Source: Escherichia coli
GTDB taxonomy: Bacteria > Pseudomonadota > Gammaproteobacteria > Enterobacterales > Enterobacteriaceae
Reading direction: 5' to 3' (one strand)
NCBI RefSeq assembly: GCF_050920415.1
Contig: NZ_CP169309.1
Length of the DNA: 64,000 nt
Shown: in pieces, positions 5,221 through 64,000 of the stretch
How positions within the stretch are numbered: position 1 is the first letter of the stretch
Layout of the letters: the number at the start of each line of letters is the position of its first letter
Translations under genes and position numbers: made by a program
The notes under the pieces: model-generated
What the model saw: only the letters and a program-made list of their open reading frames with translations
The model's database searches: none
What the model was told of the DNA's origin: nothing

Positions 5221-6330
<1,110 letters not shown>

Positions 6331-6364
6331 TGAGGGACACGGTGCCTGTTTCATAAAGATCATT

Positions 6365-12312: not shown

Positions 12313-12335
12313 TAATATATTTCTCGACTTATTAG

Positions 12336-13127
12336 TTAATGGAGAAGTGCTTTTTCTAATTCCGCTATTTTTTTCTTAACTAAATTGCTTAATATTTCAT
12401 CATTAATCGAGTCTATCTCACTTTCAATTAATCTTATTTCAAAATATCTTTCTATGTTATATGCATTCTCAAATATTTGATCTTTTTGTTTAGAGATCAG
12501 TTTAGTTGCAATACGGATATGTTCGTCATATGAAACTTCATCCTCTTTGCACGTTGAATATTTATCAGTAGTTGTATAATCCTGTGACCACATACCACCT
12601 TTTTTATTATCCCTATAATACCACTGAATATGAGACATTTCATGACATAAAGTAGCAACATGAGAATCCTTTCCCGTTACTGGATTTTTTTTGCCATCTC
12701 TATACTCAAATTTTGCGCCTATGTTAATTATATAGGGCATATCCTTACTTGGGCTGACGAATGCTGCAAATTCATTACAACCTGTATAATTTATAAAACT
12801 GCTCATTGTTAAATCATTAGCTATAATCATTAATCTTCTCACACCATCCATCATAAGAAATCTAGCATTCATGCGCCTGCCTGTATTATGTCCATATTTT
12901 CTTATATTAACTTCCTTATTTCCTTTAACACCAAAGATCTTACTGAAATCATATTCCTCCTGTGCTCCCCATCTCAAAAGATCATCTGCTCTTTTTATCA
13001 AAACCAACTTTTGTGCCTTACGAGCCTTATCAATCATTATTTTAAAATGATCAGTTATTTTTTGCTCTTTCACACATTCTTCTGGCTCTGGCTTTGGTTG
13101 TCCAGAAGTTTGATTATTATCGTCCAT
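12336..13127 (-). CDS. putative T6SS effector, zincin-like metallopeptidase (HExxH motif), vgrG-linked
   Basis: HEMSH in ATLCHEMSHIQWY; no signal peptide; probable start MDDNNQ at 13127 overlaps the vgrG stop by 11 bp; conserved C-terminal ENAYNIERYFEI shared with the paralogue. Confidence 0.55.
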   Translation of the reverse strand: MDDNNQTSGQPKPEPEECVKEQKITDHFKIMIDKARKAQKLVLIKRADDLLRWGAQEEYDFSKIFGVKGNKEVNIRKYGHNTGRRMNARFLMMDGVRRLMIIANDLTMSSFINYTGCNEFAAFVSPSKDMPYIINIGAKFEYRDGKKNPVTGKDSHVATLCHEMSHIQWYYRDNKKGGMWSQDYTTTDKYSTCKEDEVSYDEHIRIATKLISKQKDQIFENAYNIERYFEIRLIESEIDSINDEILSNLVKKKIAELEKALLH

Positions 13128-22727: not shown

Positions 22728-22878
22728 TTTGTAGGCCTGATAAGACGCGCCAGCGTCGCATCAGGCATCCGCGCATAGCCGCCGGATGCGGCGTGAACGC
22801 CTTATCCGGCCTACCAAACCGTGCTAATTCAATACATTGCAGGTGCCATGTAGGTCTGATAAGACGCATCAGGCATCG
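22728..22878. repeat. BIME cluster of three REP units between cnoX and fetB
   Basis: GTAGGCCTGATAAGACGCGCCAGCGTCGCATCAGGC, GCCGGATGCGGCGTGAACGCCTTATCCGGCCTAC, GTAGGTCTGATAAGACGCATCAGGCATCGC. Confidence 0.6.
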
Positions 22879-22880
22879 CA

Positions 22881-23660
22881 TTATTTCTTCTTCAATTGCG
22901 TCACCACCAACTGGTGGCGCGAATTATAAAACTTACGATAGGTTAAATAGCAGGCAATAATGGTCGACAAGCTGGCGGTGGAGAGCAGCATAAAGGTCAC
23001 CATAATCTGATATTTAATCGCCTTCACCGGATCAATCCCGGCAAATATCAGCCCGGACATCATTCCCGGTAAACTCACTAAGCCAACCGTTTTTGCTGAA
23101 TCGACCGTCGGAATTAAAGCCGCGCGAATACTGTCGCGAATCAATATCGCTGAAGCCTGTTTCGGCGTCGCGCCAAGACTCAGTTTCTCCTGAATCTGTT
23201 GTTGTTCGCTAATGACCCGTTGCCCTAAATTGTTGTAACACAGCCCTACCGCGACCATCGCGTTACCGGCAATCATCCCGGCAATAGGAATCACTTGCAT
23301 CGGGATAAACTCAATCGACCCTGAGAGTATCAGCACCGCCAGGGTAATTCCCGCCCCGACCGTAATAGCAATAAACGATGAAACAAAGGCTTTAGCAATA
23401 TATTTACTGCGTTTTTGCGCATTCCACGCCGCATTAAAGCAGATAAATAACACCATCAATAATGTCAGGCTGGCATCATCCACGCTGAAAATATACTTCA
23501 GCACATAGCCGACAATAATCAGCTGAATTATCGCCCGCCCGACGCTCCAGAGAATATCTTTCTCCAGCGCCAGTTTTTCTTTATGGCTAATTAAGATTGC
23601 TACCACCACCAGCATTAATGCCAGTGCCAATGATTCGTTAGTAATATTATGCGAGTTCAT
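22881..23660 (-). CDS. fetB: iron export ABC transporter permease
   Basis: Start MNSHNITNESLALALMLVVVAILI (259 aa); multi-TM protein; overlaps fetA. Confidence 0.85.
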   Translation of the reverse strand: MNSHNITNESLALALMLVVVAILISHKEKLALEKDILWSVGRAIIQLIIVGYVLKYIFSVDDASLTLLMVLFICFNAAWNAQKRSKYIAKAFVSSFIAITVGAGITLAVLILSGSIEFIPMQVIPIAGMIAGNAMVAVGLCYNNLGQRVISEQQQIQEKLSLGATPKQASAILIRDSIRAALIPTVDSAKTVGLVSLPGMMSGLIFAGIDPVKAIKYQIMVTFMLLSTASLSTIIACYLTYRKFYNSRHQLVVTQLKKK

Positions 23661-48400: not shown

Positions 48401-51400
48401 CTGACGCTCCAGCTACCGCCCGCCTGAACGGTGCCGATGTAAGCCACACCATTAAGCGTGACGGTTACCGTTTGCCCCGCTTCGGCGGTGCTGGTGCCGC
48501 TGATGGTTAACGGATTTCCCGCCTCAGCGGCGTTAAGAATATCGTCGGTGGCGATGGTGTTAATGGCAAGCGTCGGGGCCGTGGCATCGACGCTATAGGC
48601 GTGGGTTGCCGAAGCCGTGTTGCCGTTAATATTGCTGACACTGGCCTGTACCGTGGCGTCGCCGTCACGTAACGCGCTGAGATCGGCGGTGGGTAGCGTA
48701 GTTGTCCAGCTACCATCGCCCGCTACGGTAGCGATATAGGTTTTGCCGCCAAAGGTGACGGTGACGGTTTGCCCCGCTTCCACGCCGGAAGTGCTGCCGG
48801 AAAGGGTTAAATCTGCCCCTTTTTCGGCGGCGTTAATCACATCATCGCCGGAAACGGTGTTAATGGAGATCGCCACCGCCGCCAGATCGACGGTGACCGG
48901 ATGGGTGATGGTGGAGGTTGTTCCGGCAGTGTTAGTGCCGCTTACCGTGATATCCACCGTCCCCGCAGGCCAGTTGCCCACATCTGCCGCCGGAACGCCA
49001 ACGCTCCATGTGCCATCGGCTAATACTGTCGCGCCATAGGTGACGTTATTGATCACCACCGTCAGCGCCGCGCCCGCCGCCAGCCCGCTGCTGCTACCGG
49101 TTATCACCAGTGCCTGACCGTGCTCGATGCTGTTAACCACATCATCGCCCGCCACGGTATCAACGCGCAGACCTGGCAGATTGGCATCTATCACAATATC
49201 GCGCGCACCGCTGCCAGTATTACCCACGCCGTTGGTTACCGAGGCGTTAACTGTCAGGTCGCCATTACCGATGGCCTGAATATCCGCCGCCGGAACGTCC
49301 ACGCTCCAGCTAAAATTGCCCTGCACAGTAGCGGTGTAGGTTTTCCCGCCAAGCGTCACGGTAACCGTATCGCCCGCCGCCGCGCCCGTCACCTGGCCGC
49401 TGATGGTCTGCGCCACGCCCGATTCCGCCGCGTTAATAATATCGTCGGTCGCCACCGGATTAATGGTGACACCCGGCAGCGCGGTATTCACCTCCACGTT
49501 ATGGCTGGCGGAATTGCTGTTGCCCGCGCTGTCGGTGACGTTCGCCGTCACCGTGTAACTGGCTTCGCCCAGCGCACCGACGGCAGAGGCTGGCACCGTG
49601 GTGCTCCAGTTGCCTGCGGCGTCCGTCGTGGCGGAGTAATTTTGCCCGTTAAGCGTCACCGTAATTGTGGTGCCTGTTGGCTGATTACTGGTGCCGGAAA
49701 TTTGCAGATCCGCGCCTTTTTCCGTGGCATTAATCACGTCATCGCTGGCAATGGGGTTGATGCCAATGGTCGGCGCGGTAAGGTTAACGGTGACCGTGTG
49801 CGTCTCGTTGTCGCTGTTGCCAGCCACATCGGTAACGGTCGCCGTCACGGTTTGCGGGCCGCTGCCCAGCGCAGAGACATCCGCAGCCGGAACGCCGACG
49901 CTCCAGTTGCCGGAGGCATCCAGGGTGGTGGTGTAGGTTTTATTGTTTAGCGTGACGCTGACGATATCGCCCGCCTCCCCGCCAGTGCTGGAACCGGAAA
50001 TCACCAGCGCCTGCCCGTGTTCGGCGGCGTTAATAATATCATCGCCCGCAATGGTGTTAATGGTCAGTACCGGAACGGTGAGATCCACCGCCAGATTATG
50101 CGTGGTGCTCGCCGGGTTGCCCGCTTTGTCATTAACCGTGGCGGTCAGGGTGTGGCTGCCATCCGTCAATGCCTCAAGGTCTGCCGCCGGAATAGTAATA
50201 CTCCAGCTGCCGTCGGCCTGTACCGTTGCCTGATAGGTCTGCACGGTCGGGCTATTGAGCGTTACCGTAACAATCTGCCCCGCTTCAGCGGTGGTGGTGC
50301 CGCTCACCGTCACACCCGCATCGGCTTCGCTGGCGTTGACGATATTGTCGCTGGCGACGGTATTGATAATGATGGTTGGCGCGCTGCTATCGACGCTGTA
50401 GTTATGCACCGCCGAGGCGCTATTGCCATTGATATTGCTGACGCTGGCCTGCGCGGAGGCGCTGCCCTCAGGTAATGCTGCCAGATCGGCGGCAGGAACG
50501 GTGGCAGTCCAGCTACCATCGCTCGCCACGCTGGCGGTGTAATTTTTCCCGCCAAAGGTGACGGTGACGGTTTGACCGGGTTCTACATTCGTGGTGGTGC
50601 CGGAAAGGGTTAAATCAGCGCCTTTTTCTGCGGCGTTAATCACGTCGTCCGTAGCGATGGTGTTGATGGTGATCGCCGCTGGCGTGAGATCGACCGTTAC
50701 CGGATGCGTAATGCTTATCGGATTTCCGGCGCTACTTTCCCCGGACACAGTAACCGTCACTGTTCCCGCAGGCCAGGCGCTAACCTGCGCCGCCGTGACG
50801 CCCACGCTCCAGCCACCATCGGCCAGCACCGCAGTGGTGTATTCCACATTGTTAATCATAACGGTAAGCGGCGTGCCTTCTGCCAGCCCCGAGCTGCTGC
50901 CGCTGACCACCAGCGCCTGCCCGTGTTCGATGATATTGACCACATCATCACCCGCCACCGTATCGACCCGCAGACCGGGCAGATTGGCGTCGATGGTGAT
51001 ATCCCGCGTGCCGCTGCCGGTGTTGCCGTTTTGATTGGTGACCGAGGCGCTCACCGTTAAATCACCATTACCCAGCGCCTGAATATCCGCCGCCGGAACG
51101 CTCACGCTCCAGCTTAAACCGGCCTGCACGGTGGCGGTGTAAGTATTACCGCCAAGCGTAACGGTTACCGCGTCGCCAACGGCGGCTCCGGTAACCTGCC
51201 CGCTGATGGTTTGCGCAACGCCCGCTTCGGCGGCGTTAATAATATCGTCGGTTGCCACCGGGTTAATGGTCACGCCGGGCAACGCGCTGTCGACCAGCAT
51301 GTTATGGCTGGCGGTGGCGCTGTTACCGATACCGCTGGTCACTGCTGCTGTCACCGTATAGTTGGCCTGGCCCAAGGCGGTTACCGCCGATGCCGGAACG

Positions 51401-54186
51401 GTGACGCTCCAGTTGCCGGAAGAGTCGGTCGTGGTGGTGTAATTTTGCCCGTTCAGCGTCACTGTGATGGCGGTATTGGCAGGCTGATCGCTGGTGCCGG
51501 TAATCTGGAGATCGGCTCCTTTTTCGCTGGCGTTGATCACATCATCGCCCGCGATAGTGTTAATGCCAATCACCGGCGCGGCGGTATCAACCGTGACGGT
51601 CAATGACTGGCTGCCGCTGTTTCCAGCGCGGTCAGTCACTGAAACGTTGATCGGATAACTGCCGTCCACCAGTCCGCTGACAACGGAGGCCGGAACGCCC
51701 AGACTCCAGTTGCCGGAAGCATCCACCACCGTGGTGTAATCCACATTATTCAGCGTCACGGTGACAATATCACCCGCCTGCGCGCCGGTGACCGTGCCGC
51801 TGATAATTTGCGCCTGAGTGTGTTCCGGCGTGTTAATGACGTTATCGGTTGCCACCGGATTAATGGTCACCACGGGCGGCGTGGCATCGACCAGCGCCAC
51901 CCGTGAGACGCTGGTCGGATTACCCGCGACATCGTTCACGCTGGCGGTCACCGTGGCGTTGCCGTCAGCCAGTACGCCAACGTTGGCGGCGGGAACGGTC
52001 ACGCTCCAGGTGCCATCTGACTGCACGACGCCCTGATAGGTCTGCCCATTAAGCGTGACGGTCACCGTCTGCCCCGACTGGGCGTCGGTGATGCCAGTGA
52101 TTTGCAGATCCTGACCACTTTCGGCGGCGTTGATGATGTTATCAGCCGTCAGCGAGTCAATGCTTAAGGCCGGGGCCTGGCTGTCGACGGTAATGGTGCG
52201 GGAGGTGTTGCCGGTATTGCCGCTGAGATCCGTCACTGAAGCGGTAATCGCCACCGCGCCGTCAGGCAGATTTCCCATCGCGGCGGCAGGTACCGTCAGA
52301 CTCCAGGAGCCATCGGCCTGTACGGTAGTGGTAAAACTCTGTCCAGCCAGGGTTACTGTGACAGTTTGTCCTGTCTCGGCCTGTTGAGTGCTACCGGTAA
52401 GGGTCAGTGGCGCACCTTTTTCTGCGCCACTGATAATGTCATCGCCGGAGACGGTGTTAATGGTGATCAACGGAGAAACACCGACCAGCGTGATTGCTCG
52501 AGACGCCGCGCCGGTATTTCCTGCAGCATCTGTCACGGTGACGAAAATCGTATTGGCTCCGCGATCCAGCGTGCGGGTTACCGCCGGGTCCAGTGCCACA
52601 TTCCAGCTGCCATCTGCCAGCACGATGCCCGTCAGGACATGAGTGCCCAATTTCACCGTTACCGTATCGCCTGGAGAAGCACCGCTGACTTGTCCGGAGA
52701 TGATCTGCGCGACGGCCTGCTCGGCATTATTAAGAATATCGTCGCCCGCCACGGTGTTAACGCTGACCACGGGTGCTGAGGTGTCTACCGTGAAATTCGC
52801 GCTGTTGCTGGTGGTGTTCCCTGCCCGATCGCTGACACTGGCATTGACAGCGTAGTTCCCCTCCGCCAGTGCCTGGACCTCCGTGGCAGGCAGCGTCACT
52901 TGCCAGGTTCCGTCGCTACCGACGGTTGCTGAATGGCTTTTCCCGTTAACGTTCAGTGTTACGGTTTGCCCGGCTTCTGCGTTCGAAGTGCCGCTCACTA
53001 CCAGCGCGGCGTTATGTTCTGAGGCGCTGACAATGTTGTCCTGAGCGATGGTGTTGATAGCAAGTGTTGGCGGCTGGGTATCGACCGTTAGCAGCTGCGC
53101 TCCGGTGACCGTATTGCCCGTGGCATCTTTCCCACTGACCAGCACCGCCTGATTCCCTTCGCCTAACGCTTGCGCGTCGGCGGTCGGCACCTGCACGCTC
53201 CACGCGCCGTTAGCGCCTACGCTGGTGGTGTAGGTTTTACCATTTAGCGTGACGGTGAGTTCGGTTCCCTGCGCCAGGTTGCTCGTCGTGCCAGAAAGCG
53301 TAAACCCGGCGGCCTGTTCGCTGGCGTTAATGATGTTATCGCCTGCGGTGGTGGCAACCTGTACGACAGCCTGACTATTGTCGATGGTTAACGTTATCGA
53401 CCCAGCGTTGGTAATGGTGCTGCCGACGATTTGCACCACTGACCAGGTATGTTCGCCCGCGCTTTGTGTGGGTAAATCGACGCTCCAGCGCCCGTTGCTG
53501 TCTACCTGAGTGCTGGCGATAGTATTGCCGTTACTGTCTTTGATCTGAATGGTCGCCCCCGCCTGACCGCTGCCGCTAAAGGTTGGCGTGGTGTCATCGG
53601 TGATATCGTTGGCGGAAAGAATACCGCGTTGATCGCCCTGATTATCGGTTACCAAAAACGATGGCGTGGCATTGCCGGGTTCGGCTGGCGGTGGGTTGTT
53701 AACCACTTCAGTTTTTGAGTCATCATCACCACCGCTTGCCAGTAAAGCGCCAAGCGCGCCACCACCTACCGCGGCACCCGCTAACCATCCCCACGGGAAG
53801 GCACTGGTCTGAGCGACGGTATCAAGATACGGCGCAATGCTTTCAATTGCGGTAGTCTGAGCGGTCAGCTCCACGGGCGCTAATCCACCCGCCGCGGTAT
53901 CGGCAAAGGTGACATGAGTCAGCTGTTGACCATCGGCAAACACCAGTTGAGATTGTTCGCTGGTATTTGCCGCTTGCAGGAAATAACCGTTGCAGCGGAT
54001 CACCGTGCCGTCTTGCATATAGATCAACAGGTCATTTCCGTCACGGACATAACGCACAACGGCAGATGCCTGAGCATGAACCTGCACTACAGAGGGCTCA
54101 TAAATGACAACCGTAACGTCGCCTGGATTAATCAGCGTTTGTTTGACGGATGTTTTTCGCGAAATAACATCAATAATCAGGCTCAT
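33412..54186 (-). CDS. giant T1SS-secreted repeat adhesin (6,924 aa; BapA/SiiE/LapA-like) with Ig-like repeat array, FG-GAP/VCBS-like region, RTX-like repeats and C-terminal secretion signal
   Basis: Single uninterrupted 20.8-kb ORF; dozens of about 100-aa Ig-like repeats (…TINTVAGDDIINAAEHGQALVISGS…GNWSVGVPAADV…); Asp-rich motifs DFDGDGDMDLF, DWDHDGLMDI and DYDWDGAVDV; glycine/aspartate nonapeptides GSSGDNQLEGRGGNDTLNIGNGGHDTL near the C-terminus; flanked by T1SS OMP, ABC and MFP genes. Confidence 0.9.
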   Translation of the reverse strand: MSLIIDVISRKTSVKQTLINPGDVTVVIYEPSVVQVHAQASAVVRYVRDGNDLLIYMQDGTVIRCNGYFLQAANTSEQSQLVFADGQQLTHVTFADTAAGGLAPVELTAQTTAIESIAPYLDTVAQTSAFPWGWLAGAAVGGGALGALLASGGDDDSKTEVVNNPPPAEPGNATPSFLVTDNQGDQRGILSANDITDDTTPTFSGSGQAGATIQIKDSNGNTIASTQVDSNGRWSVDLPTQSAGEHTWSVVQIVGSTITNAGSITLTIDNSQAVVQVATTAGDNIINASEQAAGFTLSGTTSNLAQGTELTVTLNGKTYTTSVGANGAWSVQVPTADAQALGEGNQAVLVSGKDATGNTVTGAQLLTVDTQPPTLAINTIAQDNIVSASEHNAALVVSGTSNAEAGQTVTLNVNGKSHSATVGSDGTWQVTLPATEVQALAEGNYAVNASVSDRAGNTTSNSANFTVDTSAPVVSVNTVAGDDILNNAEQAVAQIISGQVSGASPGDTVTVKLGTHVLTGIVLADGSWNVALDPAVTRTLDRGANTIFVTVTDAAGNTGAASRAITLVGVSPLITINTVSGDDIISGAEKGAPLTLTGSTQQAETGQTVTVTLAGQSFTTTVQADGSWSLTVPAAAMGNLPDGAVAITASVTDLSGNTGNTSRTITVDSQAPALSIDSLTADNIINAAESGQDLQITGITDAQSGQTVTVTLNGQTYQGVVQSDGTWSVTVPAANVGVLADGNATVTASVNDVAGNPTSVSRVALVDATPPVVTINPVATDNVINTPEHTQAQIISGTVTGAQAGDIVTVTLNNVDYTTVVDASGNWSLGVPASVVSGLVDGSYPINVSVTDRAGNSGSQSLTVTVDTAAPVIGINTIAGDDVINASEKGADLQITGTSDQPANTAITVTLNGQNYTTTTDSSGNWSVTVPASAVTALGQANYTVTAAVTSGIGNSATASHNMLVDSALPGVTINPVATDDIINAAEAGVAQTISGQVTGAAVGDAVTVTLGGNTYTATVQAGLSWSVSVPAADIQALGNGDLTVSASVTNQNGNTGSGTRDITIDANLPGLRVDTVAGDDVVNIIEHGQALVVSGSSSGLAEGTPLTVMINNVEYTTAVLADGGWSVGVTAAQVSAWPAGTVTVTVSGESSAGNPISITHPVTVDLTPAAITINTIATDDVINAAEKGADLTLSGTTTNVEPGQTVTVTFGGKNYTASVASDGSWTATVPAADLAALPEGSASAQASVSNINGNSASAVHNYSVDSSAPTIIINTVASDNIVNASEADAGVTVSGTTTAEAGQIVTVTLNSPTVQTYQATVQADGSWSITIPAADLEALTDGSHTLTATVNDKAGNPASTTHNLAVDLTVPVLTINTIAGDDIINAAEHGQALVISGSSTGGEAGDIVSVTLNNKTYTTTLDASGNWSVGVPAADVSALGSGPQTVTATVTDVAGNSDNETHTVTVNLTAPTIGINPIASDDVINATEKGADLQISGTSNQPTGTTITVTLNGQNYSATTDAAGNWSTTVPASAVGALGEASYTVTANVTDSAGNSNSASHNVEVNTALPGVTINPVATDDIINAAESGVAQTISGQVTGAAAGDTVTVTLGGKTYTATVQGNFSWSVDVPAADIQAIGNGDLTVNASVTNGVGNTGSGARDIVIDANLPGLRVDTVAGDDVVNSIEHGQALVITGSSSGLAAGAALTVVINNVTYGATVLADGTWSVGVPAADVGNWPAGTVDITVSGTNTAGTTSTITHPVTVDLAAVAISINTVSGDDVINAAEKGADLTLSGSTSGVEAGQTVTVTFGGKTYIATVAGDGSWTTTLPTADLSALRDGDATVQASVSNINGNTASATHAYSVDATAPTLAINTIATDDILNAAEAGNPLTISGTSTAEAGQTVTVTLNGVAYIGTVQAGGSWSVSVPTTDLSNLTASPYTVSASVSDKAGNPATATHGLAVDLTVPVLTINTVSGDDIINAAEHGQALVISGSSTGGEAGDVITITLNSKTYTTTLDASGNWSVGVPAADVTALGSGPQTITAAITDAAGNSDDASRTVTVNLTAPTIGINTIASDDVINATEKGADLQITGTSNQPAGTTITVTLNGQNYTATTDSSGNWSATVPVSAVSALGEANYTVTANVTDTAGNSNSASHNVLVNSALPAVTINAVATDDIINAAESGNAQTISGQVTGAAQGDTVTVTLGGNTYTATVQANLSWSVSVPAADIQALGNGDLTVNVSVTNDVGNTGSGSRDITIDANLPGLRVDTVAGDDVINSIEHNQALVITGSSTGLTAGTALTVVINNVTYAATVLADGTWNLGVPAADVSNWPAGTVDITVSGTNSAGTTSTITHPVTVDLAAVAITINTLSGDDVINAVEKGETLVVSGSTSGVEAGQTVTVTFGGKNYTTTVETNGSWTVNVPPADLAALPDGAGNVQASVSNIYGNSAQADRAYSVDATAPLVTINTIASDDILNVSEAGAGITISGTTTAQAGQTLTVTLNNNTYQTTVQADGTWSVNVPATDLSGLTASSYTVTATVSDKAGNPASADHALAVDVTAPDLTINTVAGDDIINAIEHGQALVVSGTSTGAAAGDVVTVTLNGKNYTTTLDASGNWSVGIPAADVTALATGSQTITASLSDRAGNSDSTTHDVTVDLSGPTLTINTVSGDDIINNAEKTQDLIISGVSSGLAAGTTVTVMLNGLAYSATTDGSGNWSVTVPASAVGALGEAVYSISASATDSAGNSGSTTHTVNVESLLPGVIINTVAGDDIINAAEIAVNQTLSGQVTGTAVAGNTVIVTIGGNQYIATVQPDLSWSVSVPAADLQALGNGELTISASVTNSANNTGTATHDIVIDANLPGLRVDTVAGDDVINSIEHTQALVVTGSSSGLAAGAALTVVINNVTYGATVLADGTWSVGVPAADVADWPAGTVNIAVSGTNTAGTTTSITHPVTVNLAAVAITINTLSTDDVINAAEKGTDLQLSGTTSGVEAGQTITVIFGGKSYTTTVAADNTWGLTIPAADLATLPDGAANVQASVSNVAGNNAQATHVYSVDATAPSVTINTIASNDILNAAEAGSALTISGTSTAEAGQTVTVTLNGINYSGNVQADGSWSVSVPTGDLANLTASSYTVNASVSDKAGNPASATHNLTVDLAAPVVTINTVAGDDVINATEHAQAQIISGSATGATTGNTVSVTIGSTTYTTVLDANGNWSIGVPASVISALAQGDVTITATVTDSAGNSGTASHTVSVALGAPILAINTIAVDDIINATEKGADLSISGTSNQPAGTQVTVTLNGQNYTTTADASGNWSVTVPASRVSALGEASYTVTASATDTDGNSGSASHNVQVNTALPGVTINVVATDDIINAAEAGADQTINGLVTGAAAGDTVTVTLGGATYTATVQADFSWSVDVPAPALQALGNGELTISASVTNSVGNTGNGTREITIDANLPGLRIDTVTGDDVVNIIEHDQALVITGSSSGLAAGSNVTLTISGQTYVAAVLADGTWSVGVPAVDVSAWPAGAVTITASGSTTAGNPVSVTHPVTVDLSAVAVSINAITADDVINAAEKGAALTLSGSTSGVEAGQTVTVTFGGKTYTASVAANGSWSTTVPAADMAALRDGDASAQASVSNVNGNSATTTHAYSVDATAPTVTINTIAGDDILNAAEAGAALTITGSSTAEAGQTVTVTLNGANYTGTVQTDGSWSISVPPADLSALTASIYTVSAAVSDKAGNPTSVNHNLTVDTSVPVVTINTVAGDDVINATEHAQAQIISGSATGAATGNTVTVTIGTNTFTTVLDASGNWSVGVPASVVSALANGTVTINASVTDAAGNSGSATHQVTVNTGLPTITFNAISSDNVLNADEKGQPLTISGSSTGLATGAQVTVTLNGHNYSATTDAAGNWTLTVPVSDLAALGQANYTVSASATSAAGNTASSQANLLVDSGLPGVTINTVADDDIINAAEAGADQTISGVVTRAAAGDTVTVTLGGNTYTATVQGNLSWSVTVPAADLQALGNGDLTINASVTNANGNTGSGTRDITIDANLPGLRVDTVAGDDIVNSIEHGQALVITGGSSGLNAGTVLTVTINSVAYSATVQADGSWSVGIPAANVSAWPAGPLTVEVAGQSSAGNPVSVSHPFTVDLTAVAISINTVASDDVINAAEKGTNLTLSGSTSGIESGQTVTVTFGGKNYTASVAANGSWSVNVPAADLATLPDGAANVQASVSSASGNSASATHAYSVDASAPTLTINTIASDDILNATEAGSPLTISGTSTAETGQTVTVTLNGATYTGNVQADGSWSVSVPTSALGALTASNYTVSATVNDKAGNPGSASHNLAVDTTAPVLTINTVAGDDIINDAEHAQALVISGTSTGGEAGDVVSVVLNGKTYTTTLDASGNWSVGVPTADVTALGSGAQSITASVSDRAGNSDDASRTVTVNLTAPAISINTIAGDDVINATEKGSDLALSGTSDQPAGTAITVTLNGQNYSATTDASGNWSVTVPASAVSALGEATYSVTASVTNAQGNSSTASHNVQVNTALPGVTINPVATDDIINASEAGSAQTISGQVTGAAAGSTVTVTLGGKTYTATVQPDLSWNVSVPAADWQALGNGELTVNASVTNAVGNTGSSTRDITIDASLPGLRVDTVAGDDVVNIIEHAQAQVITGSSSGFTAGTALTVVINNQTYAATVLANGTWSVGIPAADVSNWPAGTLNITVSGANSAGTQTSITHPLSVDLTTVAISINAITPDDVINAAEKGAALTLSGSTSGVEAGQTVTITFGGKTYTTTVAANGSWSTTVPAADMAALRDGDASAQVRVTNVNGNSATATHEYSIDSAAPTVTINTIASDNIINASEAAAGVTVSGTSTAETGQTLTVTLNGTNYQTTVQADGSWSLTLPASDLTALANNGYTLTATVSDLAGNPGSASKGVTVDTTAPVISFNTVAGDDVINNVEHSQAQIISGTATGAVAGDRLVVTIAGLQYVTSTDASGNWSVGVPASVVSGLADGTVTISATITDSAGNSSTQTHNVQVNTAVVSLSVSTISGDNIINAAEAGSALTLSGTGTNFATGTVVTVLLNGKGYSATIQNNGSWSVNVSAADVAALADGTSYTVSASAQDSAGNSATASRSVAVDLTAPVININTVSTDDRLNAAEQQQPLTLNGSTSAEVGQTVTVTFGGKTYTATVAANGTWALNVPAADLAALGQGAQTITASVNDRAGNPGQTTHALTVDTVAPTVTIATVAGDDIINNAEQLAGQTISGTTTAEVGQTVTVTFNGQTWTATVGSGGSWSVFIPAQQFAGLSDGSYTISATVSDQAGNPGSASRGVTLNGDVPTVTINTFAGDDVVNAAEHGASLVISGTTTAPVGQTLTLTLNGKTYTTTVQTGGSWSYTLGSADVTALADGNAYVINASVSNAIGNIGSSNHTITVDLSAPAMGINIDSLQADTGLSASDFITSVSPVVVNGSLTAALASNETAQISIDGGITWSTLTVTGTTWRYNDSRTLTDGNYLYQVRVIDAAGNVGATDSQNVVIDTTAPDPAVKTIAISAITTDTGLITNDFVTSDTTLAVSGTLGAALSAGEFAQISIDGGTTWQNLAVNGLTWTYLDGRTLTDGNYNYQVRVIDTAGNIGATASQIVTVDTTAPLASKTIVIAGISDDTGLSSSDFVTRDTTLTVRGTLGAALAADERAQISLDGGVTWATLTVIGTSWSYADGRTLTDGTWNYTVRVVDLAGNVGQTATQNVVVDTIIPEAAKSITITGISDDTGASSSDFITSDTTLTVRGVLGAALGANEFAQISTDNGSTWVNVTVAADGLNWTYVDGRTLTNGTTTWQVRVVDLAGNVGATGSQSAQIDTVNPAQVLTIASISTDTGSSATDFITSDTTLTLTGSLGAGLASGEVAQISLDGGATWTTLTTNGTQWTYTDSRTLTDGSYVYQVRVLDLAGNTGPVVSKTVVVDTINPTATPTIVSYTDDVGQRQGTLSSSQATDDTTPLLNGVLSAPLASGEVVYLYRNGLLLGAVTMVGALNWTYSDSGLVSGAYTYSARVVDLAGNITSSSDFILTVDTSIPTTLAQITNQTTRDTTPIISGVITAALASGQYVEVVINGKTYTSQPGGAVVVDPAHNTWYVQLPDTDALAASATAYNVTAQVKSSAGNGNTANVSTGTVTVNAAIDYTPTWTTTSKSTAWGLTYGLDTHGMWTVLANQQIMQSTDPLTWSKTALTLVQSGNNYATSSIADYNRNGTGDLFITRDDYGTGYINGFTNNGDGTFSSAIQVNVGTLTWYGSIVAFDKEGDGYLDFWIGDAGGPDSNTFLWNNAGTLTGNSTTANNGGSATVGGAVTGYLSLNEGSGVDLNNDGRIDLVQHTFNLNNNFTLSSLISQGNGTFVWGQNTVNTFLSSPGSGGNSASVSMTWADFDGDGDMDLFLPASQGRANYGSLLFNTNGVLGSPVAVGATATTYASQFSLAVDWDHDGLMDIARIAQTGQSYLYTNVSNASNWTQSALGGSQSGTTSGVAAMDYDWDGAVDVLVTKQSGSVFLIRNTNTVSYGTSLHLRITDPNGINVYYGNTVKLYNSAGVLVATQIINPQSGMGVNDTSALVNFYGLNAGETYNAVLIKSTGTTASNIDQTVNTTWGGLQATDATHAYDLSAEAGTASNNGKFVGTGYNDTFFATAGTDTYDGSGGWVYSSGTGTWLANGGMDVVDFRLSTVGVTANLSVTTAQATGFNTSTFTNIEGISGSNFNDTLTGSSGDNQLEGRGGNDTLNIGNGGHDTLLYKLLNASDATGGNGSDVVNGFTVGTWEGTADTDRIDIRELLQGSGYTGNGKASYVNGVATLDAQVGNIGDFVKVTQSGSDTIVQIDRDGTGGGFATTNVVTLTGVHTDLATLLANHQLMVV
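38000..52000. repeat. tandem array of about 1.8-kb super-repeats inside the adhesin gene (about 7-8 copies; approximate bounds)
   Basis: Antisense ORF-track artefacts with near-identical sequence recur at 1,794-1,797-bp spacing (39764, 41558, 43355, 46949, 48743); the motif LPGLRVDTVAGDDV recurs 7 times about 600 aa apart in the protein. Confidence 0.7.
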
Positions 54187-54294
54187 AATGGCATTCCTGA
54201 TAAATGGCGCACATCCTTAGCGAGTCCATTTATCTAAATAAGACAAAGGTAATCACTCAACAACGATGCATACCTGATATTAATAATGGCAGGA

Positions 54295-55650
54295 TTATTT
54301 CAAGTCGGGTAAGTCGTTGTATAAGCCCTGCTTAATTCCCGCTAATGGAATAAGGTTATTCACCGCAGCGGCATAATTCACAGCGGCAACCCAGCCATCA
54401 TAATTGACATTTATTTCAGCTGATTGCGCCTGAAAGACATCTTGCTCAACGGTTAAGAGATCGTTCAGGCTGCGTTTACCCAATTTATATTCATTTTGGT
54501 ACACATCTCGCGTTCTGTGCGCACTTTCAGATTGCGCTAACCCAGCCTCTTCACGACCCCGTGCCCCAGTCCAGTTGGCATACGCCACCGACGCCCGTTG
54601 CATAACATCTAATTTCGCCTGCTCAACCTGCGACGCGGATATTTTTTGTTGCCCTTCGGCTTGCTGAACCTGAGCCGAAACCGCGCCGCCCTGATACAAC
54701 GGCGCGTTGACGTTCAACTGTAACTGGTCGTCCCAGTACGAGCGGTCGCTGGTCTGGTAGCGTGTTTTGCCGCCCTGAATACTGAGCGTCGGCCAGTATT
54801 GCGCTTTCGTTTTTTCCACACCGTACTGTGCTGACTGGCGTAAGTTTTCTGCCGCCAGCACCAGTGGGATGGACTGGTAATCAATATTTTTCAGCGATAC
54901 CGGCTGCTCGGCTAATTCAGCAGGTGGCGCGGCTATCGCCTCCGGCTGTACGCCAGTAAGCACCGCCAGTTGCGCTTTGGCGCTCGCCATCTGCGCTTGA
55001 TATTTCTCCAGGGTTGAGCGCATTCCGGCAATACGCGTCTGGGCCTGTAATTCATCCGACGATGAGTTCAGGCCAGCGTTAGCGCGCAGCGCCGCCATGT
55101 TGTAGACGTTTTCCAGCGAGTGGATATTGCGTTGAGCCGCATCGCACAACGCCTGATAACGACTGACCTCCATATAGGCAGTCGCCGTTTTTTCGGCAAC
55201 ATCGGTTAAAGTTGCCATCAATTTAAAGCGGTAGCTGTCACGAGCGGCGGTTTGCAGTTTGATATCGTTATCTGTTTTACCGAAGTCATACACCAGCTGT
55301 GTCAGGGTTATGCCATACGAAACGTTGTTATCAAGCCTGCCGCTGGAGTCCGTTTGCCGTGACGGCCCCGCGTTGCTGGTTAATCCAACGTGTGGATACC
55401 AGGCACTTTTGGCTTCATCAATTTGCGCTTCGCCAATACCTATCTGCGCCGCCTGTTGAGTGACGTCGGGATTTCGCGCAAAGGCGCGTAATATACTTTC
55501 CTGTAAAGATAATCGGGCAACTGGCGTTACCGCTGGGGCGTTCGCCCATTGTGGCAGCGGTGCAGCAATTGTAGCTTCTCCCATCACCATAAAACTTATT
55601 AAAAAAATAAGTCCATTATTTTTACGGTTTTTAAACTGGAATCGCGCCAT
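54295..55650 (-). CDS. TolC-family outer membrane channel of the T1SS
   Basis: 451-aa ORF with signal peptide and two-repeat OEP architecture rich in Q/A coiled-coil segments; first gene of the apparent T1SS operon. Confidence 0.82.
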   Translation of the reverse strand: MARFQFKNRKNNGLIFLISFMVMGEATIAAPLPQWANAPAVTPVARLSLQESILRAFARNPDVTQQAAQIGIGEAQIDEAKSAWYPHVGLTSNAGPSRQTDSSGRLDNNVSYGITLTQLVYDFGKTDNDIKLQTAARDSYRFKLMATLTDVAEKTATAYMEVSRYQALCDAAQRNIHSLENVYNMAALRANAGLNSSSDELQAQTRIAGMRSTLEKYQAQMASAKAQLAVLTGVQPEAIAAPPAELAEQPVSLKNIDYQSIPLVLAAENLRQSAQYGVEKTKAQYWPTLSIQGGKTRYQTSDRSYWDDQLQLNVNAPLYQGGAVSAQVQQAEGQQKISASQVEQAKLDVMQRASVAYANWTGARGREEAGLAQSESAHRTRDVYQNEYKLGKRSLNDLLTVEQDVFQAQSAEINVNYDGWVAAVNYAAAVNNLIPLAGIKQGLYNDLPDLK

Positions 55651-58476: not shown

Positions 58477-60981
58477 ATGTCACAAACTATCGACCTGACC
58501 CTGGACGGCCTGTCCTGCGGTCACTGCGTTAAACGCGTGAAAGAAAGTCTCGAACAGCGCCCGGACGTTGAGCAGGCGGATGTGTCTATCACTGAAGCAC
58601 ACGTTACGGGTACTGCCAGTGCAGAACAGCTGATCGAAACCATCAAACAAGCGGGTTATGACGCATCTGTAAGCCACCCAAAGGCTAAACCGCTGGCGGA
58701 GTCATCAATCCCGTCGGAAGCACTGACAGCGGTTTCTGAGGCGCTTCCGGCAGCAAACGCCGATGACGATGACAGCCAGCAGTTGCTGCTGAGCGGCATG
58801 AGCTGCGCCAGCTGTGTCACCCGCGTACAAAATGCGCTGCAAAGCGTACCGGGCGTCACTCAGGCACGGGTAAACCTGGCGGAGCGTACTGCGCTGGTGA
58901 TGGGCAGTGCCTCTCCACAAGATTTAGTGCAGGCGGTGGAAAAAGCGGGCTACGGCGCGGAAGCGATTGAAGATGACGCTAAACGCCGCGAGCGCCAGCA
59001 GGAAACCGCCGTCGCTACCATGAAGCGCTTCCGCTGGCAGGCAATTGTCGCTCTGGCGCTAGGTATCCCGGTGATGGTCTGGGGGATGATCGGCGATAAC
59101 ATGATGGTCACCGCCGACAACCGCAGTCTGTGGTTAGTTATCGGCCTGATAACGCTGGCGGTAATGGTTTTCGCCGGCGGGCATTTTTACCGTAGCGCAT
59201 GGAAAAGCCTGCTGAACGGTGCGGCGACAATGGATACGCTGGTGGCGCTGGGTACTGGCGTGGCGTGGCTCTATTCAATGAGCGTCAACCTGTGGCCGCA
59301 GTGGTTCCCGATGGAAGCGCGACATCTTTATTACGAAGCCAGTGCGATGATTATCGGTCTGATTAATCTCGGTCATATGCTGGAAGCGCGCGCACGTCAG
59401 CGTTCTTCAAAGGCGCTGGAAAAGTTACTCGATTTAACCCCGCCGACGGCGCGCCTGGTCACTGACGAAGGTGAAAAAAGCGTGCCGCTGGCAGATGTTC
59501 AGCCTGGTATGTTACTGCGCCTGACGACCGGCGATCGCGTACCGGTAGATGGTGAAATTACCCAGGGCGAAGCGTGGCTGGATGAAGCAATGCTGACGGG
59601 CGAACCTATCCCACAGCAAAAAGGCGAAGGCGATAGCGTTCATGCAGGTACCGTGGTGCAGGACGGTAGCGTGCTGTTTCGTGCCAGTGCGGTTGGCAGC
59701 CATACTACGCTGTCACGGATCATTCGTATGGTGCGCCAGGCCCAGAGCAGTAAACCGGAAATCGGCCAGTTGGCGGATAAAATCTCTGCCGTATTTGTGC
59801 CGGTAGTGGTGGTGATTGCGCTAGTCAGTGCGGCCATCTGGTACTTCTTTGGTCCGGCACCGCAAATTGTTTATACCCTGGTGATTGCCACTACGGTACT
59901 GATTATCGCCTGCCCGTGTGCGCTGGGGCTGGCAACGCCAATGTCGATTATTTCCGGCGTCGGGCGTGCGGCTGAATTTGGCGTGCTGGTACGGGACGCC
60001 GACGCGCTGCAACGCGCCAGTACGCTCGACACCGTAGTGTTCGATAAAACCGGGACGCTGACCGAAGGGAAGCCGCAGGTTGTCGCAGTGAAAACATTTG
60101 CTGATGTTGACGAAGCGCAGGCGCTGCGTCTGGCGGCGGCACTGGAACAAGGTTCCAGCCATCCGCTGGCACGAGCGATCCTCGATAAAGCAGGCGATAT
60201 GCAACTGCCGCAGGTCAACAGCTTCCGTACATTGCGTGGGCTGGGCGTGAGCGGTGAAGCAGAAGGTCATGCGTTATTGCTGGGTAATCAGGCGTTGTTA
60301 AATGACCAGCAAGTCGATACTAAAGCGATTGAAGCAGATATTTCAGCTCAGGCATCGCAAGGGGCAACGCCTGTGCTGCTGGCGATTGACGGGAAAGCGG
60401 TGGCCCTGCTGGCGGTGCGCGATCCGTTGCGTAACGATAGCGTGGCGGCACTGCAACGTCTGCATAAAGCGGGATATCGTCTGGTGATGCTAACCGGGGA
60501 TAACCCGACCACCGCCAATGCGATCGCCAAAGAAGCAGGGATTGATGAGGTGATAGCCGGGGTGCTGCCAGACGGTAAAGCCGAAGCGATCAAACGTCTG
60601 CAAAGTGAAGGACGTCAGGTGGCAATGGTGGGTGACGGCATTAACGACGCGCCAGCACTGGCCCAGGCGGATGTCGGTATTGCGATGGGGGGCGGCAGCG
60701 ATGTTGCCATTGAAACCGCGGCGATTACCCTGATGCGCCATAGCCTGATGGGTGTTGCGGATGCGCTCGCAATTTCCCGCGCAACGCTGCGCAACATGAA
60801 GCAGAACCTGCTCGGTGCGTTTATCTACAACAGCATTGGTATTCCGGTCGCCGCCGGTATTTTGTGGCCGTTCACTGGAACCCTGCTTAACCCGGTGGTT
60901 GCCGGAGCGGCAATGGCGCTCTCGTCGATCACCGTAGTGAGTAACGCCAACCGGTTGCTGCGGTTTAAACCGAAAGAGTGA
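58477..60981 (+). CDS. copA: Cu(I)-translocating P1B-type ATPase
   Basis: 834-aa ORF with two N-terminal metal-binding domains ([16 protein letters not shown]), CPC motif, phosphorylation motif DKTGTLT and [10 protein letters not shown]. Confidence 0.93.
58677..58683 (+). other. slippery heptamer CCCAAAG in copA at codon about 69 (candidate -1 programmed frameshift site giving the short CopA(Z) product)
   Basis: Heptamer seen in sequence at the end of the first metal-binding domain (…SHPKAKP…); recalled from published E. coli copA work. Confidence 0.5.
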
Positions 60982-61021
60982 TTGGTATTTACTTAATGCG
61001 TTTGTGAGATCCAGTTCTTGT

Positions 61022-61265
61022 TGCGCTCCTTTTATGAGTCATGCCATATAAAGTGACTGGCGCAAGGAGCGCGCAGGGGGCGGCCAATCGCCGCCGCCCC
61101 CTGCACCCCCGGGCTCTGGCGAACAAAATCGCCGCTGCGCGGTACCCTCGGCTTATCCCTTGCGGCTACCGGGTCGGGCGCGAGGTAACATCCCTGTAAA
61201 ACGCGCCCTCAGCCCACATCCATGTGGGCTGCCCCGGCCTTCAGGGAACGCCTCGGCGATTTTGA
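61022..61265. repeat. GC-rich palindromic intergenic element (multiple perfect hairpins) between copA and ybaP
   Basis: Hairpins GCAGGGGGCGGC/GCCGCCCCCTGC (61073-61104), AGCCCACAT/ATGTGGGCT (61211-61230), TGCGCTCCTT/AAGGAGCGCG (61022-61073) and long-range CAAAATCGCCG/CGGCGATTTTG; no ORF. Confidence 0.4.
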
Positions 61266-61409
61266 CGCCACCAACACCCGTGCAGTCTTTCGTTTCAAAG
61301 CAAAAACAATTTTTCGATCATATTTAAGCTACCACTGAACAAGCCTCATAACTCCATTTGCGCCATCCCTCACCGCGCGCTAGCATGATATTTCACAAAG
61401 GGAGGTCGT

Positions 61410-62204
61410 ATGGATCTGTTGTACCGGGTAAAAACGCTTTGGGCCGCGCTGCGCGGTAATCATTACACCTGGCCTGCTATCGATATCTCTCTTCCCGACC
61501 ATCGCCATTTTCATCTGATCGGCAGTATTCATATGGGTAGCCACGATATGGCTCCCCTGCCCACCCGTTTGCTCAAAAAGCTCAAAAACGCCGATGCGCT
61601 GATCGTCGAGGCGGATGTTTCCACCAGCGATACGCCTTTTGCCAATTTGCCTGCCTGCGAGGCGCTGGAAGAGCGCATTAGCGAGGAGCAACTCCAAAAC
61701 CTGCAGCACATTAGCCAGGAGATGGGCATTTCTCCGTCGCTCTTTTCTACCCAACCGCTGTGGCAAATCGCGATGGTTCTTCAGGCGACGCAGGCACAAA
61801 AACTGGGGCTGCGGGCAGAATATGGTATCGATTACCAGCTATTGCAGGTGGCGAAGCAACAACATAAACCCGTGATTGAACTGGAAGGGGCAGAAAACCA
61901 GATTGCCATGTTGCTCCAGCTCCCTGACAAAGGACTGGCGCTGCTGGACGATACGCTGACCCACTGGCACACCAACGCTCGTTTGCTGCAACAAATGATG
62001 AGCTGGTGGCTGAATGCACCACCGCAAAATAATGAAATAACGCTGCCTAATACGTTCAGTCAGTCGCTGTACGATGTGCTGATGCATCAGCGAAATCTCG
62101 CCTGGCGGGACAAATTACGCGCTATGCCGCCGGGGCGCTATGTGGTCGCGGTCGGTGCACTACACCTGTATGGAGAAGGGAATTTGCCACAAATGTTGCG
62201 CTAA
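61410..62204 (+). CDS. ybaP: TraB/GumN-family protein
   Basis: 264-aa ORF MDLLYRVKTLWAALRGNHYTWPAIDISLPDHRHFHLIGSIHMG...; followed by hairpin GGCCAATATCGCTATTGGCC. Confidence 0.85.
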   Translation: MDLLYRVKTLWAALRGNHYTWPAIDISLPDHRHFHLIGSIHMGSHDMAPLPTRLLKKLKNADALIVEADVSTSDTPFANLPACEALEERISEEQLQNLQHISQEMGISPSLFSTQPLWQIAMVLQATQAQKLGLRAEYGIDYQLLQVAKQQHKPVIELEGAENQIAMLLQLPDKGLALLDDTLTHWHTNARLLQQMMSWWLNAPPQNNEITLPNTFSQSLYDVLMHQRNLAWRDKLRAMPPGRYVVAVGALHLYGEGNLPQMLR

Positions 62205-62407
62205 AAAAATGGCCAATATCGCTATTGGCCCGTCAAAGAGGAATTTCATTTTTTTATTATTATGCCGTCACTTTAAGCGACGGTGTAACTCGATTGTCGC
62301 TCAATCTCACCATCCTGCCAATACTCTTAGGCAAGATGACTCTTTTTTTTGGACCGCCATCAGGCGTATGCTTGCTTCGTTTTTTTGTTTAAGGCAGGAA
62401 AATTACC

Positions 62408-62887
62408 ATGACACCCGCAGTTAAATTACTCGAAAAAAACAAGATTTCGTTTCAAATCCACACCTACGAGCACGATCCGGCTGAAACCAATTTTGGCGAT
62501 GAAGTCGTCAAAAAATTAGGTTTGAATCCGGATCAGGTCTACAAAACGCTGCTGGTGGCAGTGAATGGTGATATGAAACACCTTGCCGTGGCCGTTACGC
62601 CGGTCGCAGGTCAACTGGATCTTAAAAAAGTAGCAAAAGCGCTGGGTGCCAAGAAAGTTGAGATGGCCGATCCGATGGTCGCGCAGCGTTCGACGGGGTA
62701 TCTGGTTGGGGGGATTAGCCCACTGGGGCAGAAAAAGCGTCTGCCAACGATTATCGACGCCCCCGCGCAAGAATTTGCCACTATTTTTGTTTCTGGCGGC
62801 AAGCGCGGGCTGGACATCGAACTGGCGGCAAGCGACCTGGCGAAGATCCTTGATGCCACATTTGCTGATATCGCTCGTCGCGATTAA
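62408..62887 (+). CDS. ybaK: Cys-tRNA(Pro)/Cys-tRNA(Cys) deacylase
   Basis: 159-aa [27 protein letters not shown]... with YbaK/ProX fold hallmarks. Confidence 0.88.
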
Positions 62888-62910
62888 GTGATGCACACGG
62901 AAGATGAGAT

Positions 62911-63710
62911 GTGGAAAGGATTACAGAGACATTAAGTATCGCTTGTGCAGATGAGATACCGGATATCGCCTTACTTCGGCAAACATCGAGAGAGAAGGTA
63001 TTACATCTGCATTTTGCCAGCGAAGCAGAGAGGTATCGTGAGGAATTCGGGCTGGTGCTGAAAGCACAGCTCGATGAATTTGTTGTTGGCATGCATTCTG
63101 CCGACCCGGTTATCAGGATCGCCAGATTAATATCGCTTGAAGAGATTAACCGCCATCAGGATTTTTTCGAACACTGCGCGAAAGAATATCGTAAGCTGGC
63201 GACAGAGCTTATATTTGCATTGGCTGAACAACTGAATGTTGAGATGGCGGAAAATAACCCGCTAGTTACCTTTGCCCCCTTCAAATGCAACCGTAAGCGA
63301 AAAGGCAAAATGGGAAAGTGGCAGTATTGTTTTCACGGTTTTCATTGTGCATTTGAGAATAAAAAAACAGAGCAAAATATTGAAGTTCCCCTCGCCTACG
63401 GCTTTGATTTCGGCGATCTGGACCCGTATTTTTTTCCGGATTTATCAAATCGACCCCCGACTGGCAGCCTCTGCCAGTGGCTATTTACGATGATTACCAC
63501 GACGGCAGCAGGATCATTCAACAACTGCTGGCGCTGGGAAAGTTAGAAAAAATCCCTTCACCGATCCCACAATACACGGGGGTTGCTGCGGTAGATCGGT
63601 CCAATGTCGACATCGCAAATTTTCGCTCAACACTGGAGAGTCGCCTGCACCGATGTAAATTACGCTGGCTTTTGAAGCGTGTAAAAAATTCACAAAGGAG
63701 CGAAAGATGA
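62911..63710 (+). pseudogene. hypothetical gene apparently split by a +/-1 frameshift (frames 62911..63546 and about 63406..63710)
   Basis: Two overlapping open frames; homopolymers T7 (about 63427-63433) and C5 (about 63455-63459) lie in the overlap; the downstream frame ends in ATGA overlap with the next gene. Confidence 0.4.
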
Positions 63711-64000
63711 AATTTGACCATCTTGTTGATGTTAGCTTCCACAATTTTGTCTTTAACGGAAAATTAGATTTTGTCGAACCGGGGCAAACAATGGCATGGC
63801 TGGAACAAAACTTTGTTGAGCCGGACTCTAAAAATGATATGGGAAATGGTTTTTATATCTGGCTATTTGGCAATGTTGAGTTTCATTTCGAAAGCAACAA
63901 GCTATATATGATTTGGTGCGATTATTTGAGCCAAATCCATTTGGGCAAAGCGATCCGATTTGATAAAGGAATATTGAATAACGTCGCTGAGTTGAACGTT
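63707..64000 (+). CDS. hypothetical protein, partial (runs off window end)
   Basis: Open frame from ATG 63707 with SD-like AAGGAGCG upstream (MKFDHLVDVSFHNFVFNGKLDFVEPGQTMAWLEQNF...); no stop before the window end. Confidence 0.4.
   Translation, partial: MKFDHLVDVSFHNFVFNGKLDFVEPGQTMAWLEQNFVEPDSKNDMGNGFYIWLFGNVEFHFESNKLYMIWCDYLSQIHLGKAIRFDKGILNNVAELNV

Follow-up and report, generated by a model that had tools for sequence, protein, structure and literature searches.

The window, which is the whole stretch of 64,000 nt of Escherichia coli DNA that was analyzed, raises a question at its right end. Two overlapping reading frames follow ybaK there, and a further gene runs off the window. The two frames could be separate genes or the parts of one broken gene, and they could form a functional unit with the gene that follows. 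We put a probability of about 85% on the following answer. An accessory gene of the DUF6896 family lost one T of a run of eight and became a lineage-specific pseudogene, its neighbor is unrelated and intact, and the event is ordinary gene loss. The locus was already known as an annotated but uncharacterized accessory gene. The finding is accurate, and it is an ordinary lineage-specific loss. It matters little for the biology of the organism, as a nonessential accessory gene appears to have been lost by homopolymer slippage in one Escherichia lineage.

The DUF6896 gene and its reading frames

The features of the region are listed in Table 1. The earlier note described two overlapping open frames that span a run of seven T (T7) and a run of five C. 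Both frames and both runs are present in the sequence, and the first frame is also in the ORF list. The C5 run lies in the overlap at positions 63454 to 63458. In the first frame, codons 1 to 175 are authentic, and the reading then runs out of frame for 36 codons to a premature TAG. No stop interrupts the second frame between 63408 and its TGA (63708 to 63710). Its 3' part encodes residues 177 to 266, from GFIKSTPDWQPLPVAIYDDYHDG to the end of the protein.

Table 1. Features at the right end of the window (positions are those of the window)
Feature	Position	Strand	Description	Source
copA	58477-60981	+		ORF list
ybaP	61410-62204	+		ORF list
ybaK	62408-62887	+	Upstream backbone gene; Cys-tRNA(Pro) deacylase	ORF list; RefSeq annotation of near-identical genomes
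Left islet edge and ybaK-DUF6896 spacer	62889-62910	+		K-12 and SK1144 junction alignment
ORF, 5' part of the DUF6896 gene	62911-63546	+	GTG start; predicted product of 211 aa	ORF list
T7 homopolymer	63429-63435	+	One T deleted here; intact alleles have T8	Alignment
3' part of the DUF6896 gene	63436-63710	+	Out of frame with the start of the gene	Translations
Shine-Dalgarno sequence of gene 2	63695-63700	+	AAGGAG, 6 nt before the ATG	Read from the sequence
Gene 2, part within the window	63707-64000	+	ATG start; 98 codons	Extent from MFDS1022581

The region was aligned with three E. coli genomes. The alignment contains a single 1-nt gap, which falls in the T run. The window and MFDS1022581 have T7, and 2013C-4282 and SK1144 have T8. 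The stretch of the relatives that matches the 1,121-nt query (62880 to 64000) is 1,122 nt long. With T8, the region is one 801-nt ORF of 266 aa. RefSeq names this ORF "DUF6896 domain-containing protein." It is followed by a hypothetical protein of 167 aa with a 4-nt overlap and then by ushA on the minus strand. Across the DUF6896 gene, the allele of 2013C-4282 is the same as that of the window apart from the extra T. The proposal of a single gene of about 266 aa broken by a 1-nt indel is borne out by this comparison of T7 with T8. The length of 266 aa is exact, and the T8 relatives carry the intact single ORF, annotated in RefSeq.

Intact E. coli DUF6896 proteins include WP_000439795.1 and WP_000439798.1 (PF21837). 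They are encoded beside ybaK in ST131 and other genomes and represent the same locus and the same gene as in the window. Their genes have a GTG start and an ATGA overlap with the next gene, as in the window. The window allele differs from them in its T7 run and in its shorter product, 211 aa with 175 authentic residues. In RefSeq, the T7 form of MFDS1022581 is a 163-aa CDS that begins at an internal ATG (WP_001355179.1) and carries no pseudogene label. The result is of use for annotation: the gene properly starts at the GTG at 62911 and encodes 266 aa, as opposed to this 163-aa CDS.

The earlier note recognized neither the merged protein nor the downstream one. The merged protein matches Pfam family PF21837 (DUF6896) at residues 87 to 215, with 53.1 bits against a cutoff of 27 and an E value of 4.3e-14. 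All 43 aligned homologs (43/43) match PF21837 as well. It has no match in NCBIfam, PADLOC, or PHROGs; DUF6896 in Pfam is its only family. A homolog search retrieved 63 proteins of about 260 aa with 38 to 59% identity over nearly the full length. Their hosts are Leminorella, an Enterobacteriaceae MAG, and many Bacteroidota (Flavobacterium, Chryseobacterium, Chitinophaga, Aquimarina, and Mucilaginibacter). The 266-aa frame is not a product of chance, because the 63 homologs are conserved from the N terminus through the shifted part. In the 43-sequence alignment, the N terminus of the window protein (MERITE) aligns with MxRxTE of 42 homologs. This N-terminal conservation validates the GTG start at 62911.

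The strongest motif of the family is W.Y.FHGFHC...Q.IEVPL..G..FG.LDPYFF..FIKSTP..PLPV.IY.DY.DG. The frameshift falls inside it, after F175, and the conserved residues T182, P187, G199, and E213 are lost. It also removes residues 176 to 215 of the profile match, and the window copy does not contain an uninterrupted DUF6896 domain. Judged by its sequence, the DUF6896 gene of the window is a pseudogene. The truncated protein is most likely nonfunctional, because its best-conserved C-terminal third is removed.

The AlphaFold model of the DUF6896 protein is confident (pLDDT of 88.8). Across the 43-sequence alignment, C89, H142, H145, and C146 show little or no variation. This cluster could be a metal site, which we propose with low confidence. 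In the alignment and the model, the C-terminal 30 residues form a basic helix that is modeled with low confidence. Tentatively, DUF6896 may be a cytoplasmic protein that stands alone, with a conserved cluster of Cys and His residues and a basic C-terminal tail. Against PDB sequences, profile searches with this protein and with the downstream one retrieved nothing above chance level. A literature search on DUF6896, the WP accessions of the intact proteins, and the ybaK/ushA island retrieved nothing relevant.

Frequency and origin of the T7 allele

The T run was scored with a 76-nt probe across the tract, which was matched in 660 complete E. coli genomes. T7 is found in 1 of these 660 scorable genomes (MFDS1022581). 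The next-best matches all span 77 nt, which corresponds to T8. The exact 211-aa truncated product is recorded from 37 contigs, and the assembly collection lists it in 73 blocks. It has several GenBank accessions and is labeled as multispecies Escherichia. Its intact counterpart on the same island haplotype is found, as an exact match, on 582 contigs. About 20 further assemblies contain a locus of the window type. The window and MFDS1022581 differ at 2 of 13,121 nt and have T7 in common. T7 is a genuine inherited allele and not a private error, because the truncated product is found on 37 contigs.

T7 occurs on at least three ybaP-ybaK flanking haplotypes among the eight loci compared. A single SNP separates one of these T7 haplotypes (L048) from a T8 genome (L002). 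T7 may therefore not have originated in a single clonal event, as it occurs on several flanking haplotypes, one of which also occurs with T8. Repeated slippage could account for the several T7 haplotypes, as could recombination or homopolymer errors in some of the assemblies. The most likely route is replication slippage, by which one T would be lost from T8. The resulting T7 would take translation out of frame after residue 175 and on to the stop at 63546, which would yield the 211-aa product.

The earlier note had offered a pseudogene, a sequencing error, and phase variation as explanations of the indel, and of these the pseudogene fits best. An error of sequencing or assembly would mean that the true sequence is T8 and that the gene is intact in the source strain. 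Homopolymers are typical sites of long-read errors, and several database proteins of the locus (P0014, P0016, P0021, P0034, and P0053) contain multiple error-like frameshifts. It also fits an error that only one complete RefSeq genome shares T7. However, the 37 contigs and 73 blocks with the 211-aa product span several accessions and more than one Escherichia species label, and the roughly 20 additional assemblies have the same type of locus. The window and MFDS1022581 are also not identical, and both have T7. These observations make an error very unlikely. Slipped-strand phase variation would make the T run a contingency tract that switches the DUF6896 gene on and off reversibly. The indel sits in an 8-nt homopolymer, in which a change in length shifts the frame. 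The contingency genes of Neisseria, Haemophilus, and Campylobacter likewise have a frameshift in a coding mononucleotide run and an off allele on more than one background. T7 is on at least three flanking haplotypes, with the 1-SNP pair of L048 and L002 among the loci, and T7-type frameshifts also occur on an ST131-like island haplotype (P0021). Unlike in those genes, the variant allele is rare here and the tract is shorter; a run of eight T is short for a contingency tract. The run is a by-product of conserved mid-gene Phe codons. It is formed by the codons TAT TTT TTT TCC of the conserved DPYFF(S) motif, in which DPYFF is invariant, and it lies two-thirds into the gene. Its length was either 7 or 8 in all eight loci examined. 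Contigs of the same island haplotype with an intact protein outnumber those with a truncated one (582 against 37). Frequent polymorphism of the tract was not seen, although recurrence is possible. T7 does not look like phase variation, because it is found in 1 of 660 complete genomes, and we give reversible switching little credence.

Both of these explanations concern the state of the tract, and recoding concerns what is made from it. By this account, the full-length protein would still be made from the T7 allele, either by ribosomes that slip -1 on U UUU UUU or by slippage during transcription. The zero-frame T TTT TTT at 63429 to 63435 is a perfect X XXY YYZ heptamer, with TTT codons at 63430 to 63432 and 63433 to 63435. 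A -1 slip on it would yield the wild-type ...YFFSGFIK... exactly. The T7 allele resembles dnaX-type -1 frameshifting in this perfect zero-frame U UUU UUU and in the restoration of the authentic protein by the shift. There is also an 8-bp hairpin downstream of the T run (z = -3.0). This hairpin begins about 24 nt past the run, which is too distant for a classical stimulator; such structures lie 5 to 9 nt downstream of the slippery site. It is also made of codons of the conserved WQPLPV motif. A single frame encodes the protein in all orthologs and, among scorable complete E. coli genomes, in about 99.8%. In contrast to the dnaX type, the window has no properly spaced stimulatory structure, and the two-frame arrangement is not conserved in relatives. 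Seven T are below the length for efficient transcriptional slippage. A programmed frameshift was rejected, as the slippery site is present but the hairpin spacing and the conservation are wrong, and recoding of either kind is extremely unlikely. A broader reading combines several of these elements. It holds that the T run is a recurrent and possibly adaptive site of inactivation or recoding in a small conflict-related locus, with T7 arising independently on several backgrounds and residual full-length protein tuning expression. We assign it a very small chance. If it were true, the fast-evolving DUF6896 gene by ybaK and its neighbor from an unnamed BLIP-like family that spans phyla would be an undescribed conflict locus. 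Lineage-specific loss of the DUF6896 gene is the reading that we retain.

The islet between ybaK and ushA

Similarity to K-12 is lost just past the stop codon of ybaK. In K-12, ybaK and ushA are separated by a 36-nt hairpin spacer, and the islet strains have about 1.36 kb in its place. The islet has a hairpin of its own at its right end, immediately ahead of the ushA stop. The earlier note took ushA to be absent and the region to be a strain-specific insertion. In MFDS1022581, the near-identical genome that differs at the 2 sites given above, ushA follows just past the window. It starts about 38 nt past gene 2, at a window-equivalent position of about 64248. The sequence corresponding to that beyond 64000 thus holds the end of gene 2, these 38 nt, and then ushA.

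The islet was counted by megablast of positions 62880 to 64000 against 5,426 complete E. coli genomes. It is present in 774 of them (14%), always once and always on the chromosome. Some members of the protein cluster carry the names of E. fergusonii and E. whittamii. The GC content is 38 to 47% in the islet and 50 to 53% in the flanks. The islet is now defined as a 1.36-kb segment with two genes in 14% of complete E. coli genomes. It is accessory rather than specific to one strain, and the term insertion may not fit it either. In another Enterobacteriaceae genome, ybaK is followed, after 12 nt, by a DUF6896 gene that begins similarly (ATGGAAAGGATTAC). Compared with E. coli, YbaK of that genome is 89% identical and DUF6896 is only 52% identical. 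Because the gene also follows ybaK there, DUF6896 may be an old resident that was lost from K-12-like strains. It may be a fast-evolving occupant of this site rather than a recent insertion. A phage origin was also considered and rejected, as neither family of the islet was found in 2.9 million viral contigs or in PHROGs.

The downstream gene and its relation to the DUF6896 gene

Gene 2 is the further gene that runs off the window. Its ATG (63707 to 63709) overlaps the TGA of the DUF6896 gene as ATGA. This overlap and the Shine-Dalgarno-like site before it, both described earlier, are seen in the sequence. In MFDS1022581, gene 2 encodes 167 aa and ends at window-equivalent position 64210, beyond the window. 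A scan of the interval between ybaK and the DUF6896 gene detected nothing that resembles a promoter or a terminator, and transcription therefore probably reads through from ybaK. Translation of the DUF6896 gene would end early, at 63546, which is 160 nt before gene 2, and coupling through the ATGA would be lost because of this. Gene 2 keeps its own strong AAGGAG site and is probably still translated from the ybaK read-through transcript.

Gene 2 has no match in Pfam, NCBIfam, PADLOC, or PHROGs, and thus the profile searches placed the merged protein in a family but not the downstream one. Its close relatives are few. An exhaustive phmmer search retrieved 191 cluster representatives of about 160 aa. 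These have no consistent Pfam match, and one is fused to DUF4240. Relatives are found in Listeria, Paenibacillus, several Neisseria, Moraxella, Alysiella, Bacteroidota, and Myxococcales. The genome-wide scan for relatives was based on the closer subset of the gene 2 alignment. Most of the relatives are single genes by housekeeping genes (clpB, galT, and aroA). One adjoins a Barstar homolog, and another adjoins a PIN-domain gene. About 35 neighboring ORFs from 17 loci of relatives are housekeeping or miscellaneous small genes, with no secreted toxin among them. A Myxococcales MAG (L034) contains a 1,314-aa ORF that ends in a gene 2-like domain and has no Pfam match. This ORF may be an artifact of the ORF caller in GC-rich DNA and was left out of the evidence.

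The AlphaFold model of gene 2 is very confident (pLDDT of 94.2) and has two alpha+beta repeats. The predicted fold is a tandem repeat like that of BLIP and DUF4309, for which the Foldseek support is marginal (E value of 2e-3; TM score of about 0.4). The tandem alpha-beta repeat proteins that it resembles are BLIP, DUF4309 (YjgB; 4ygt), YfeY (2qzb), and TsiN (9j9w). Sequence identity to these is 4 to 14%, and no cognate toxin was found nearby. Unlike BLIP, YjgB, and YfeY, gene 2 has no signal peptide, as read from its sequence. Comparison of the gene 2 profile with PDB sequences found no similarity. Homology to E. coli YdcD, which is Rhs linked, was considered and rejected (hhalign probability of 0.4%). 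From its fold class and distribution, gene 2 might encode a cytoplasmic protein that binds other proteins and is inhibitor-like or immunity-like, which we suggest with low confidence. Orphan immunity genes of polymorphic-toxin systems also encode small cytoplasmic proteins, have a patchy spread across phyla, and occur as single-gene insertions between housekeeping genes. Gene 2 differs from them in that it matches no Imm family in Pfam and has no toxin domain adjacent to it in the loci examined. The fold class and the distribution make for a weak link between gene 2 and immunity genes.

The earlier note treated the two genes as a module. They could then be a toxin-antitoxin, toxin-immunity, or small defense pair in which one partner was disabled by the frameshift. 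The genes are small and co-oriented, and the 4-nt ATGA overlap is the layout of type II toxin-antitoxin systems. The islet has a low GC content and a patchy distribution, and the predicted fold of gene 2 resembles that of some T6SS/Rhs immunity proteins. However, neither protein matches PADLOC, PHROGs, or the toxin, antitoxin, and Imm families of Pfam, and the absence of both families from the viral contigs also speaks against a pair. The two genes are juxtaposed only in Escherichia. In other taxa, each occurs alone and has no constant partner. The neighbors of DUF6896 are unrelated in five genomes, which include Leminorella, Flavobacterium, Chryseobacterium, and Chitinophaga. Among about 57 other DUF6896 loci, from metagenomes and genomes, the neighbors cluster only into local synteny groups of five or fewer. 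No relative of gene 2 is beside DUF6896 in about 60 non-Escherichia loci, and no DUF6896 gene is beside the relatives of gene 2 in more than 25 loci. The module is thus not conserved beyond Escherichia. What is documented is two widespread families that stand alone, a 260-aa subfamily of DUF6896 and a 160-aa family that has no Pfam model. Either one is possibly worth a functional study, and there is no sign of a new mechanism.

The independent decay seen in the natural alleles speaks against a relation of the addiction or toxin-antidote type. A toxin-antitoxin or defense pair was rejected because of this independent loss and the nonconserved pairing, and such a pair is highly improbable as an account of the locus. 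As far as these alleles and loci can be read, the two genes are not a toxin-antitoxin pair or any other obligate pair. The retention of one particular partner, as would be seen for an antitoxin, is not found; either gene is broken with the other intact, or both are broken. The DUF6896 gene is intact in 2013C-4282 and WL297, and gene 2 is cut to 125 aa in both by a 29-nt deletion between CGTCAATCGC repeats. In the lineage of the window, the DUF6896 gene is frameshifted and gene 2 is intact. In L048, both genes are broken, by T7 and by the gene 2 deletion.

Alleles of the two islet genes

In MFDS1022581, the near-identical genome, RefSeq/PGAP annotates gene 1, the frameshifted DUF6896 gene 3' of ybaK, as an ordinary CDS (WP_001355179.1) that starts at an internal ATG. 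It carries no pseudogene or frameshift flag relative to the 266-aa protein. The island allele of SK1144 (ST131-type) has a C at the last position of this CDS, which gives Gln at residue 213. That residue is Glu in all aligned family members (43/43), so the "intact" majority allele is also altered at an otherwise invariant site. Of the 774 complete genomes with the island, 770 belong to the 98.8% identity class of the SK1144 allele.

The gene 1 coding region also contains an 8-bp hairpin, ACUGGCAG-CCU-CUGCCAGU. The 72-nt fold that includes it had a z of -3.0 against shuffles. The hairpin sequence comes from codons for the conserved motif WQPLPV, and the structure is probably incidental.

In 2013C-4282 and WL297, gene 2, which overlaps gene 1, has lost 29 nt between two copies of CGTCAATCGC, a deletion that truncates its product to 125 aa. 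The lesion was found in 3 of 774 complete genomes (at least 99% identity). A gene 2-like domain forms the C-terminus of a 1314-aa ORF in a Myxococcales MAG. A Pfam search with this ORF returned no match. The ORF may represent a genuine fusion or an artefact of GC-rich DNA.

Variation in the flanking regions

Upstream of ybaT, MFDS1022581 has the end of a giant gene, whose annotation reads "BapA-related adhesin SiiEA" and whose length is about 20.8 kb, as well as a TolC-family gene. SK1144 has other genes at this position, cueR among them. The annotation of 2013C-4282 marks a frameshift in the adhesin gene.

The copA-ybaP gap contains ybaQ in K-12, and ybaQ (HigA family) with a RelE/ParE toxin gene in SK1144. 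In the window the gap lacks ybaQ, and in MFDS1022581 it contains no annotated genes. This gap is one more small presence/absence polymorphism of the region. In 2013C-4282, two extra hypothetical genes separate ybaL from gsk and a single one lies between hemH and adk; both islets are missing from the other genomes compared. Small accessory insertions or deletions seem to arise readily across the entire ybaK-htpG stretch.

Small RNA and feature coordinates

The Rfam scan of the window placed an sroB match between ybaP and ybaK. The K-12 annotation has the sRNA ChiX at the counterpart position. The match is a backbone feature, as expected.

Coordinates of features in the window and compared loci
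Feature	Locus position	Window position	Remark
Adhesin gene end and TolC-family gene	MFDS1022581 locus, 1-4771	about 50880-55650 (equivalent)	MFDS1022581 annotation
copA-ybaP gap without ybaQ		60982-61409	
sroB		62203-62286, minus strand	Rfam, 82.1 bits; gathering score 44
163-aa CDS	MFDS1022581 locus, 12176-12667	63055-63546	RefSeq/PGAP
Hairpin		63460-63478	
G (window) vs C (SK1144)	SK1144 locus, 12667	63546	
29-nt deletion site, gene 2	2013C-4282 locus, 13177-13206	about 64056 (equivalent)	past window end
Extra islets	2013C-4282 locus, 18370-19120 and 22841-23413		
1314-aa ORF	Myxococcales MAG locus (L034), 3524-7468		simple ORF caller
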